Assembly (NCBI GenBank): GCA_964408285.1
Contig: CAYOYV010000001.1
Coordinates: 96,001-160,000, forward strand
Source of the DNA: an uncultured Nitrososphaerota archaeon
GTDB lineage: Archaea; Thermoproteota; EX4484-205; JAAOZO01
Direction: 5' to 3'
DNA: 64,000 bases
In this document: positions 26,011 through 54,624 of the stretch, piece by piece
Layout of the letters: every line of letters begins with the position of its first letter
How positions within the stretch are numbered: the first letter of the stretch is position 1
The notes under the pieces: model-generated
Told to the model about the DNA's origin: nothing
Databases searched by the model: none
Seen by the model: only the letters and a program-made list of their open reading frames with translations
Translations under genes and position numbers: made by a program

Positions 26011-27273
26011 TCATTTTTCTCCTCCATGTTGTGATAATTCTATACCCTTCGATACAAGCTTGAACTGTCCAGACTCTCTGTCAATGTAAATGGATATTAT
26101 CAATCCTTTCTTAACGGCAGGGTCTCCTTTCGCTCTATATCTCCAATGGGGATCATTCCACGTGGCTATATGGGCCAACAACTGTTGTTTTGTCCTGTTG
26201 CTCTCCGGGTCTTGGCGCATATCCAGTTCAGACACTGTTGTTAACTTGACCTCACATCCAATGAACTCGTGATTAGAATATCCAGAAACGTCGAAGATGT
26301 CGAACCTCTTATCGCCCTGCCCAGGGATATTGTTTGAAGTCGTCGCGATACGTAAGGCTTTGAAATCACTTTTCCTGAGGACTTCCTCAGCTATCTTGCA
26401 TCCTGCCTTTCCTTTTTCGAAGCTGCTGAATCCCCTTGCTTCCTTGAATAGATCAGTTGAGACATAACCCTCACAAGAGTCCAGATTCCCTTTGGTTATT
26501 CTGACATTTTCGACGTATTCCAAAGCAATAGCGCGTTTGCGTTCGTGCGTACCTTTCTTGTATGTCAAAACAAGCTCTTTCAAGGGGTCATTGTAGTGAA
26601 TGGCGAGTATCTCACGTGCCTGTTCTGCGATTATTTCAGATTTCGCTATACCGTAGCCCTCGTACTCAATCTTCAGAACATGCTCATTCCCGAGGTAGTC
26701 TTTGATTAGTAGTTTGGCGTAGGCTACGGTTGCACCGCCCGGTTCCCAACCGAATTCAGTTATCTTGGCCTGAATCTCGCGGGAATCCACAACGATGCGA
26801 ATCCCACCCTCGGCTATTTTGAGCTTGAATGGCAGACCCGCCTTGTCGGCTGCTTCGAGGAATCCAATTGCATTGATCTTTCTCACACTCGCTTCGACTT
26901 TTTCTCCAGGTCCCCCAATCCATTCGGGAACTGAGTGCTTATGTCTCTCTTTGTCCGGGCCATACTCTCTGTATACCCTCTTACTATCAGCTCCTATTTC
27001 AAAGATACATTTCTTCTGGCCCAGGTATTTTTGCAAACTCTCCTTTGGAATCTCCGCGTACAGGTATCCATCGGAACCACGATATGCGATAATCCCTACT
27101 CTGATGCCGTAGGGATAATCGATCAATCTGTTGAGTTCCTCCCGGAGTTCTTCTGGACTAGCCCCTGCCAGGTTCAATTCACGAGCTGTCTTGTCAAATA
27201 TTCGAGCCAGTTCTTCGCGTCTTCTTTCCGCTCTTCTCTTTATGTTCAGAAGTTCGCCAAGTTGCCCCATCAA
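26011..27273 (-). CDS. Protein with C-terminal PD-(D/E)xK nuclease-like domain
   Basis: KGKAGCKIAEEVL...RFDIF...IGCEVKLTT. Confidence 0.6.
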   Translation of the reverse strand: MMGQLGELLNIKRRAERRREELARIFDKTARELNLAGASPEELREELNRLIDYPYGIRVGIIAYRGSDGYLYAEIPKESLQKYLGQKKCIFEIGADSKRVYREYGPDKERHKHSVPEWIGGPGEKVEASVRKINAIGFLEAADKAGLPFKLKIAEGGIRIVVDSREIQAKITEFGWEPGGATVAYAKLLIKDYLGNEHVLKIEYEGYGIAKSEIIAEQAREILAIHYNDPLKELVLTYKKGTHERKRAIALEYVENVRITKGNLDSCEGYVSTDLFKEARGFSSFEKGKAGCKIAEEVLRKSDFKALRIATTSNNIPGQGDKRFDIFDVSGYSNHEFIGCEVKLTTVSELDMRQDPESNRTKQQLLAHIATWNDPHWRYRAKGDPAVKKGLIISIYIDRESGQFKLVSKGIELSQHGGEK

Positions 27274-27302
27274 TCGTCGATACTCCTAAAGCCTTGATCG
27301 AG

Positions 27303-27410
27303 TGCGGCGTCCGGGAGTTTCGGGCAACAGACTGTCTTTCGGACCCGGGACTACTAGCTTTCGTCTTAGATTGGAAGGCTAGTGTCATAACCAGACTAGA
27401 CCAACGCCGC
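27303..27410 (-). tRNA. tRNA-Gly(TCC) with two introns (37/38, 12 nt at 27360-27371; T-loop 59/60, 21 nt at 27317-27337)
   Basis: Acceptor GCGGCGT/ACGCCGC-A, D arm GTCT/TGAC, anticodon stem CTAGC/GCTAG with loop CT-TCC-A|A, T stem CCGGG/CCCGG; 75 nt after splicing. Confidence 0.88.
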
Positions 27411-27535
27411 ACGCTTCTACGTCGCTTCTGGCATTACATATGTCTTATGTTTCACCGTCTCTCGTTACCTTGTGGAATCCCGTTCTGGAGACATCCACAT
27501 GAAGAAATCCCACTTCTCTTCCACCGGGCGAGATC

Positions 27536-28201
27536 TCAGATCTTCAGGCCTGAGACGAAGAAATTCGCTCCTGACACGAAGATATCTCTCCAGATGAGGC
27601 CGCCAGAATCAAGCAGATACTGCCATTGTCCTAATTCACAGCGGTAGTAGAGCCTTTCGATTGTCTCTTCCCGCTTCCTCCAAGTCACCCAGATCATATC
27701 TCCTCTTTTTCTCGAAACCCTCGATCTCATGATCGCCACCGGAGCCCAAATGGAAGCGGTTATTTTCCCCAGGTTCTTTGAGCTTCTAATGATTTCAGAT
27801 ATTGCCTTGGCGTGATCCAAGCTGGAGAGGTGATGCAACGCAGCCATGCAAACGGACAGATCGAAGGCGCCTTCCCTGAAGGGCAGACTCGCTATGTCCG
27901 CCGCAACCAGATGTATCTTGTGCCTGATGTTTTGTGATTTGGCTTTGGTTCCGGCAAGTTCCAGCATTCTAAGGCTGAGGTCCAGACATACTAGCTCCTT
28001 GCTTATCTCATCGAGGATGGGTAGATTGGTTCCTGGTCCGGATCCGTAGTCGCATGAAATCGCATATGACCCAGCCGTCAATATCCTCTCCAATTCCGGG
28101 AAGGATTTCGACCTAAGTCTAGCGTAGTCACAGGAAAGGACATCATAGGCCTCCATAACGCTGATCCTGTCTGCCAACCGCCCTGATTCAGCTGACGGCA
28201 T
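27536..28201 (-). CDS. Class I SAM methyltransferase, Trm9/ALKBH8-like
   Basis: DYGSGPG, LDLS..ML, AALHHL, SIWA, IWVTW and RLYY motifs; start trimmed to avoid overlap with radA. Confidence 0.7.
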   Translation of the reverse strand: MPSAESGRLADRISVMEAYDVLSCDYARLRSKSFPELERILTAGSYAISCDYGSGPGTNLPILDEISKELVCLDLSLRMLELAGTKAKSQNIRHKIHLVAADIASLPFREGAFDLSVCMAALHHLSSLDHAKAISEIIRSSKNLGKITASIWAPVAIMRSRVSRKRGDMIWVTWRKREETIERLYYRCELGQWQYLLDSGGLIWRDIFVSGANFFVSGLKI

Positions 28202-28244
28202 CCGCTTATAATTTATATCCAAGCTGAATCCCTCATCCCCATAC

Positions 28245-29234
28245 ATGCCAGCCAAGAAAGGAGAGGAATCAGAGAAATCGAGATTCGAAAGCCTAGAAGA
28301 GATTCCAGGAGTCGGCCCGGCCACGGTAGCAAAGCTGAAGGAGATTGGATATTCCACAGTAGAATCCCTTGCCACAGCCTCTGTAATCGAGCTGGTGAAG
28401 GCAGGAATCTCGGATAAGGTTGCAGCGAGAATCATTTCTCAGGCGAGGCAAGGCATTCAGATAGACTTCACGACTGCTCTAGAAGTCCTCGAGAAAAGGA
28501 AGGAGATCAAGAGAATAACAACTGGTAGCAAGGCACTGGACGAGTTATTAGGAGGTGGGGTTGAGACGATGGCGATAACAGAATTCTTCGGAGAATACGG
28601 CACGGGTAAGTCCCAGATCTGTCACCAACTGTGCGTGAACGCTCAGCTCCCGCCCGAGAAGGGGGGACTTGATGGAAGCGTTCTCTACATCGATACGGAG
28701 AACACCTTCAGACCGGAAAGGATAATAACAATGGCATCGAATGTGGGGCTAAATCCAGAGCAAACTCTGAAGAGGATAATAGTGGCAGATGCATACAATT
28801 CTGATCATCAGATTCTTGTCCTGGAGAAGTCCGATGAGATCATAAAGAGGAATGATGTCAAGCTTGTCATAATCGATTCCTTGACAAGCCACTTCAGGAG
28901 CGAGTATCTTGGAAGGGAATCGCTTGTGACGAGGCAACAGAAGCTCAATGCTCACCTGCACAGACTGGAAAGGTTAGTGGTCGCATTCAATCTGGTAGCT
29001 GTGGTTTCAAACCAGGTGATGGCGAAACCAGACGAGTTCTTCGGACTAGGAGCATACCCAATCGGTGGCCACGTTCTGGGCCATAGGAGTCACAACAGAA
29101 TTTTCGTCAGAAAAGCGGCTGGAGGAAAAGGAAATAGAGTGGCCAGACTAGTGGTGAGCGTGGATAGGCCTGAAGGCGAAGCAATGTTCAGGATCGACGA
29201 AAAGGGAATATCTGATGCCGAGGAAGTAGAGTAA
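28245..29234 (+). CDS. radA: DNA repair recombinase RadA
   Basis: HhH LEEIPGVGP, GEYGTGKSQ, YIDTENTFRPER and IIDSLTSHFRSEY motifs. Confidence 0.97.
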   Translation: MPAKKGEESEKSRFESLEEIPGVGPATVAKLKEIGYSTVESLATASVIELVKAGISDKVAARIISQARQGIQIDFTTALEVLEKRKEIKRITTGSKALDELLGGGVETMAITEFFGEYGTGKSQICHQLCVNAQLPPEKGGLDGSVLYIDTENTFRPERIITMASNVGLNPEQTLKRIIVADAYNSDHQILVLEKSDEIIKRNDVKLVIIDSLTSHFRSEYLGRESLVTRQQKLNAHLHRLERLVVAFNLVAVVSNQVMAKPDEFFGLGAYPIGGHVLGHRSHNRIFVRKAAGGKGNRVARLVVSVDRPEGEAMFRIDEKGISDAEEVE

Positions 29235-46612: not shown

Positions 46613-46714
46613 GCTCCGGTGGTGTAGTCCGGTCAAGTTGGCCGATAGCATGCGAGCCTCTCGGTAATCTGAGGGGGAGAGCTCGCAACCCGGGTTCAAA
46701 TCCCGGCCGGAGCA
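46613..46714 (+). tRNA. tRNA-Glu(CTC) with two introns (D-loop, 11 nt at 46636-46646; 37/38, 16 nt at 46664-46679)
   Basis: Acceptor GCTCCGG/CCGGAGC-A; CGAGC CT-CTC-G|A GCTCG; T loop TTCAAAT; BHB helices CGGT:GCCG and CTCT:GGGG. Confidence 0.93.
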
Positions 46715-46739
46715 CCTCGAATACTCGATGAGGGGAAAT

Positions 46740-54533: not shown

Positions 54534-54624
54534 GGGCCCGTGGTCTAGCAGGAGAAGACGCCGGCCTCCGGACAATCGCGAAGATAGCCGGACAGCCTGG
54601 GTTCGAATCCCAGCGGGCTCGCCA
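54534..54624 (+). tRNA. tRNA-Arg(CCG) with 14-nt 37/38 intron (54572-54585), followed by CCA
   Basis: Acceptor GGGCCCG/CGGGCTC-G; CCGGC CT-CCG-G|A GCCGG; CTGGG TTCGAAT CCCAG. Confidence 0.93.

Follow-up and report, generated by a model that had tools for sequence, protein, structure and literature searches.

The tRNA-Gly(UCC) gene on the minus strand of the window, the 64,000-nt stretch of an uncultured Nitrososphaerota archaeon that was analyzed here, has C instead of U at position 55; the same replacement is found in three other tRNA genes of this genome, and a fifth gene has G at this position. Based on comparisons of the gene sequences, we propose that C55 is genuine, derived and tolerated, and that it would stay in functional tRNAs. 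The probability that we assign to this proposal is about one half.

The gene (27303..27410, minus strand) sits in a 262-nt gap between minus-strand open reading frames at 26011..27273 and 27536..28435 and encodes a pre-tRNA of 108 nt without CCA. As read from the sequence, exon 1 (27372..27410), which aligns with the Gly(UCC) genes of relatives, covers tRNA positions 1-37 and includes the 5' strand of the acceptor stem, a D arm with G18G19 and the anticodon TCC. Intron 1 (27360..27371) is 12 nt long and is placed at 37/38, while cuts at 36/37 or 38/39 would give the identical product. Exon 2 (27338..27359; positions 38-59) comprises the 3' strand of the anticodon stem, the variable loop, the 5' strand of the T stem and T54, C55, C56, G57, A58 and A59, where C55, which is U in nearly all tRNAs, is at 27342. 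Intron 2 (27317..27337) is 21 nt long and is placed at 59/60, a register that fits 13 tRNAs of this genome, and exon 3 (27303..27316; positions 60-73) comprises T60, the 3' strands of the T and acceptor stems and A73. The acceptor stem (GCGGCGT/ACGCCGC, followed by A73) is of the glycine type, with the pairs G1-C72, C2-G71 and G3-C70. The anticodon stem (CTAGC/GCTAG) encloses 19 nt, i.e., a 7-nt loop plus the 12-nt intron, and TCC is the sole anticodon choice that gives a sensible 7-nt loop, while the T stem (CCGGG/CCCGG) encloses 28 nt that consist of TCCGAA, the 21-nt intron and T. Apart from U55, the elbow is canonical, with G18G19, T54, C56, a purine at position 57, A58 and the pair G53-C61. 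The original prediction, which had placed a C at position 55 of tRNA-Gly(TCC) at 27342 in a T loop reading TCCGAAT, is correct in all these details on the minus-strand reading. Alternative splice points in the T arm were also enumerated by hand for all prefix/suffix combinations; none yields U55. After both introns are removed in silico, ARAGORN calls a full-length 75-nt tRNA-Gly(tcc) with the correct cloverleaf, anticodon and discriminator, while the unspliced gene is reported neither by ARAGORN, with or without its intron mode, nor by Rfam at gathering and E-value thresholds. Two more intron-containing tRNA genes are found in the window, Glu(CUC) at 46613-46716, which ARAGORN mislabels as Gly(gcc), and Arg(CCG) at 54534-54621, and both have a normal T55.

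The stretch is contained in sediment metagenomes, no RNA run that contains it was found, and the assembly consists of 1.82 Mb in 46 contigs with a completeness of 93.7%. Logan contigs of three sequencing runs cover 27342 without any difference: run X1, which is possibly the source sample, at a depth of 22, and runs X2 and X3 of other studies. The same contigs differ from the window at 27604 and 27725. This check used assembled contigs rather than raw reads, so that rare variants would be lost, and run X4 does not cover 27272-27364 and hence the C55 site.

A total of 42 tRNA genes were recognized in the genome, including 37 with T55 (one of them tentative), four with C55 and one with G55, so that 5 of the 42 depart from U at this position. 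This census, which combined home-made T-arm and acceptor scans with recognition by eye, required G53, C56, A58, C61 and an uninterrupted 7-bp acceptor stem and is incomplete; four T-arm-like matches (C4:-75849, C7:+43549, C11:+8208 and C2:+25170) were dropped, as they were not tRNA-like on inspection. In addition to Gly(UCC), C55 is found in Glu(UUC) (C14:25383, plus strand) and Lys(UUU) (C8:53944, plus strand), each with an intron at 59/60 whose G pairs with C55 in a helix of four Watson-Crick pairs, and in Asn(GUU) (C14:20619, minus strand), which has a plain 7-nt loop and no T-loop intron. The fifth deviant, Gly(CCC) (C1:44770-44892, plus strand), contains three introns and has G55 together with C18. 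In-silico spliced forms of all five are called by ARAGORN as full-length tRNAs with the expected anticodons, and no paralogue of any of them was found by blastn-short against the assembly. Asn has a single anticodon, so its C55 gene must serve translation. With four such genes in one genome, C55 appears to be a lineage trait rather than an error. Lys(UUU) (C8:53944-54103) apparently contains four introns, in the D stem, at 30/31, before the T stem and at 59/60, in a 160-nt precursor. Lys(CUU) (C4:+36647) has 66 nt between its T-stem strands, which are tentatively read as two introns (55/56 and 59/60) that leave TTCGAAT and thus T55.

In related genomes, up to 25 of which were covered, T55 is found at all 61 tRNA loci read, which comprise 22 Gly loci with various anticodons, 19 Glu (UUC and CUC), one Gly-CCC, six Asn and 13 Lys (UUU and CUU); seven loci of one fetched set of 30 fell below the blastn-short threshold and were left out. 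The nearest well-covered relative, G002, which belongs to the same family and gives the best Glu match, has T55 in all 34 T arms that could be parsed, with two further loci giving no T-arm parse. T55 is also found in 17 of 17 Gly(UCC) genes from other metagenomes, all from other archaea and none from the same genus, and a scan of metagenomes with the specific T-arm pattern of this genome gave no matches. Because all the relatives read have T55, the comparison with orthologous tRNAs that had been suggested as a check indicates that C55 is derived. It is confined, so far as seen, to a genus-level lineage, of which no other genome was among those searched. This lineage has undergone at least four T55-to-C55 changes (Gly-UCC, Glu-UUC, Lys-UUU and Asn-GUU) and one T55-to-G55 change (Gly-CCC).

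In the bulge-helix-bulge (BHB) register of the 59/60 intron of Gly(UCC), exon positions 54-57 (TCCG) face the intron strand CGAA (27319..27322, read from 27322 to 27319). As had been predicted, T54-A, C56-G and G57-C are paired, while C55 is mismatched with the A at 27320 (pairing pattern -x--), so that three of the four centre pairs are formed. The whole-molecule minimum free energy (MFE) fold of the pre-tRNA does not give a cloverleaf, and the arms were therefore evaluated separately. The T-arm segment with C55 folds at -9.4 kcal/mol with two of the four centre pairs kept, and the same segment with U55 introduced in silico folds at -12.3 kcal/mol with all four. The centre helix of intron 1 (CTTC/GACG) has three pairs and one TxC mismatch at position 33, and it is energetically poor, as its strict BHB energy is +2.7 kcal/mol vs. 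an MFE of -5.5 kcal/mol. Both motifs are in the right register, each with three of four centre pairs. One-mismatch centre helices are found in 3 of the 13 introns at 59/60 of this genome, which argues that such a mismatch is not the mark of a dead gene. At the site of intron 1, the Gly(UCC) genes of relatives have introns of 14-17 nt, and introns of 12 nt are found at the same anticodon-loop site in Gly(CCC) of both this genome and G002. In the latter two genes a C34xA mismatch is kept in the anticodon-intron helix. Furthermore, the Gly-CCC genes of two relatives, one of them G002, have the anticodon loop CCCCCAA, with C33 where U is nearly universal, while Gly(CCC) of this genome has T33 and its intron partner is switched too, from G to A.

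The splice helices of Glu and Lys differ from those of G002 on both the exon and the intron side. In Glu, whose intron is at the same site in both genomes, T55-A of G002 corresponds to C55-G of this genome; in Lys, T55.G and G57-C of G002 correspond to C55-G and A57-T. These compensatory exon/intron changes show that the splice helices are under selection in their genome-encoded form. The Gly(UCC) intron strand CGAA is identical to that of three tRNAs of this genome with TTCG T loops, and the simplest history of Gly(UCC) is that of a T55-A pair whose exon base changed recently.

Non-canonical tRNA introns, including those at site 59/60, are known in archaea, and two types of EndA subunits are expected for a splicing endonuclease of broad substrate range, as stated in passages of PMC4090602. 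Two EndA-family genes (PF01974), with open frames of 194 and 217 aa, are found in this genome, and their products are predicted to form an (alpha-beta)2 splicing endonuclease. The gene cbf5 (TruB family; contig C6, L082:1312-2328, outside the window) is also split: its catalytic GTLD/P motif is interrupted by an insert of 15 nt that contains an in-frame TGA. Omitting this insert restores GTLDPGVTGVL, and its flanks form a BHB motif (centre CCCT/GGGG, outer GGGA/TCCT). The insert presumably resembles the BHB intron of crenarchaeal cbf5 mRNA.

Based on these results, we propose that tRNA-Gly(UCC) may be encoded by a single-copy working gene of an intron-rich tRNA set, whose transcription a TATA-like promoter would drive. 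The introns (12 nt at 37/38 and 21 nt at 59/60) would be excised at relaxed BHB motifs by a two-subunit splicing endonuclease of broad specificity, and the exons would be ligated. The mature tRNAs would keep C55, and these species would then have no pseudouridine 55. The CxA mismatch in the splice helix of Gly(UCC) may remain from a recent change in the exon to which the intron has not yet adapted, while the introns of Glu and Lys already have a G paired with C55. The contact with G18 in the elbow would persist in a modified form, possibly as a reverse Watson-Crick pair G18:C55. G18 and position 55 are on locally parallel strands, and a reverse Watson-Crick G:C pair is seen at G15:C48; by analogy, such a pair could replace G18:Psi55. 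An elbow rewired in this way, with a reverse Watson-Crick 18:55 pair (G:C, or C:G in Gly-CCC) in place of G18:Psi55, would be about as unusual as editing of C55. The C18 and G55 of Gly(CCC), whose orthologue in G002 has G18 and T55, are what a direct 18:55 pair predicts, which is one case and not proof. No A/T-rich box is found within 60 nt upstream of Gly(CCC), GGG may be readable by Gly(UCC), and Gly(CCC) may be decaying or dispensable; the 18:55 covariation thus rests on one such gene. Functional C55 also runs counter to general experience, given that no single mutation of G18-U55 was tolerated in yeast SUP4oc according to passages of PMC4117946 and that Psi55 is described as universally conserved in passages of PMC7912444, and this leaves room for editing.

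C55 might be deaminated post-transcriptionally to U55 by an enzyme that is not yet recognizable and then pseudouridylated, so that the mature tRNAs are canonical, which we regard as possible but doubtful. Four of the five deviations are to C, the sole base that a deaminase could convert to U, and the reported intolerance of U55 to single mutation in the yeast screen (passages of PMC4117946) also points in this direction. Editing before splicing would pair all three C55 splice helices, through U-A in Gly and U.G in Glu and Lys, and U55 makes the T-arm BHB of Gly(UCC) more stable by about 2.9 kcal/mol. The centre helices of two other pre-tRNAs contain mismatches, at 54 and 57, that are beyond repair by editing. 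An edited U55 could be a substrate of Pus10, which is intact (371 bits), and of Cbf5, which is intact once the 15-nt BHB insert is left out. The cytidine deaminase or deaminase-THUMP fusion for which a search had been recommended was not found in the 93.7%-complete assembly: there is no PF00383 match, the zinc motif [HC][AVS]E...PC..C does not occur in any open frame of at least 80 aa, and THUMP domains are found in ThiI, Pus10 and a 196-aa THUMP-only protein, none of which is fused to a deaminase. The absence of this domain is not decisive, however, because archaea have a T-loop deaminase acting on m1A57 that has yet to be assigned to a family (passages of PMC7912444). The C55-G pairs of Glu and Lys, which replace the T-A or T.G of G002, are what would be expected from selection on an unedited C in the pre-tRNA, although by our own estimate chance would give such pairing about once in four times with three cases. 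Moreover, G55 of Gly(CCC) is not repairable by deamination. The absence of a T-loop intron in Asn implies that editing, if any, would not be coupled to introns; the intron-coupled editing that the original prediction had put forward is thus unsupported, given also the C55-G pairs of Glu and Lys and the lack of any deaminase domain or motif among the proteins searched. Editing of C55 to U55 in at least four tRNAs of this archaeon, via a deaminase family not yet linked to RNA editing, is rather unlikely; if true, archaeal C-to-U tRNA editing at an invariant structural position would be known from a second, independent case.

A less probable explanation than editing is that the Gly(UCC) gene is decaying, with a functional T55 copy in the 6% of the genome that is not assembled. 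Both splice helices of the gene contain a mismatch, and the metagenome-assembled genome (MAG), with 46 contigs and 93.7% completeness, could lack a second Gly(UCC) copy. An A/T-rich box is found at the same distance upstream of most tRNA genes of this genome, and the TATA-like box of Gly(UCC) (ATATGTAAT, -31..-23, 27433..27441, minus strand), a predicted promoter, is weaker than most. However, a DNA search of the assembly gave a single match and blastn-short gave no paralogue; the intact second copy that had been considered was not found. All four stems are intact, and the anticodon stem differs from that of relatives by a compensatory change from C-G to T-A. In 828 long open frames, GGA is used more than any other Gly codon (27.6 per 1000). 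Three populations with differences at nearby sites have the same gene sequence, although these strains are so similar that this carries little weight. Three further single-copy tRNAs also have C55, one of them the only possible tRNA for Asn, and four hidden spares are improbable. Broken stems, a lost promoter and an intact second copy, by which tRNA pseudogenes are recognized, were not found for Gly(UCC) in this assembly. Because it is the only such gene found, with intact stems, a compensatory change and a TATA-like box, and because GGA is the most used Gly codon, decay of Gly(UCC) is unlikely. Of the recent T-to-C change in a decaying tRNA that had been suggested, the change itself is supported by T55 in all the relatives read, while the decay is not. 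The 36 nt upstream of Gly(UCC) (27411-27446) resemble the region upstream of the tRNA at C17:+9467, with the shared elements ATAT..TAATGCCA..AAGAAGCG..AAGCGT, which suggests that the two genes may have a promoter region that is common to them or was copied between them.

It is very improbable that C55 marks tRNAs set aside for a non-decoding task. The non-proteinogenic tRNA-Gly(UCC) species of staphylococci reportedly have altered T loops, and the tRNA described here is likewise a Gly(UCC) species whose T loop is altered, but canonical genes for Gly(UCC), Glu(UUC), Lys(UUU) or Asn(GUU) that could decode in their place were not found in the assembly, and GGA is the most used Gly codon. A sequencing or assembly error at 27342, which the original prediction had also allowed for, is excluded and genomic C55 is genuine, as this reading has nothing in its favour beyond the rarity of C55, while the contigs of X1, X2 and X3 agree on C and the same T-to-C state is found in four tRNA genes on three large contigs.

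U55/pseudouridine 55 is one of the best-conserved nucleotides in biology and anchors the elbow where the D loop meets the T loop. If C55 is retained, a free-living archaeon would have replaced U55 in four single-copy, otherwise canonical tRNAs, while the relatives read keep U. The two questions for which this archaeon offers a natural system are whether Psi55 is truly indispensable, and whether G18:C55 serves as its stand-in or a T-loop deaminase of a new kind is at work. The change from T-A to C-G is also a clear example of exon/intron co-evolution within a splice helix. In addition, the failure of both ARAGORN and Rfam on Gly(UCC) is a warning that standard tRNA finders miss such genes. The full-text searches made gave no description of natural C55 in archaeal tRNAs that are otherwise canonical, although supplementary tRNA tables may hold cases.

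Among known systems, the multi-intron tRNA genes of Crenarchaeota/Thermoproteales are similar to those described here in that they have several short introns per gene, including those at 59/60, relaxed hBH/HBh' motifs and two EndA subunit genes, according to passages of PMC4090602. They differ in that their descriptions concern the position of introns, and the searches gave no mention of a departure from U at exon base 55, whereas in this genome that base departs from U in 5 of 42 genes. In Methanopyrus kandleri, CDAT8, a cytidine deaminase fused to a THUMP domain, reportedly edits C8 to U8, and its tRNA genes are said to share with those found here a genomic C at a near-universal U in several tRNAs of one archaeal lineage. 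Unlike in M. kandleri, position 55 rather than position 8 is affected here, in 4 of 42 genes rather than in most, one gene has G55, and no deaminase domain, fusion or motif was found in the genome. U55C mutants are said to have been used in studies of pseudouridine synthases. Such engineered U55 and G18 mutants are laboratory-made, and single G18-U55 mutants were inactive in SUP4oc (passages of PMC4117946), whereas the genes found here are natural and single-copy. Similarly, the C18-G55 swap of a KEOPS substrate study is the same change as that of Gly(CCC) but a laboratory mutant, as described in passages of PMC8887486. The tRNA-Pyl of Desulfitobacterium hafniense is a natural, active tRNA with a C55 that contacts a G of the D arm (G13-C55) according to passages of PMC7609411, but it has a compact core without G18G19 and the T-Psi-C motif, whereas the tRNAs found here are otherwise canonical. 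Compared with these systems, what is new is that position 55 has come to vary within an intron-rich set of archaeal tRNAs.
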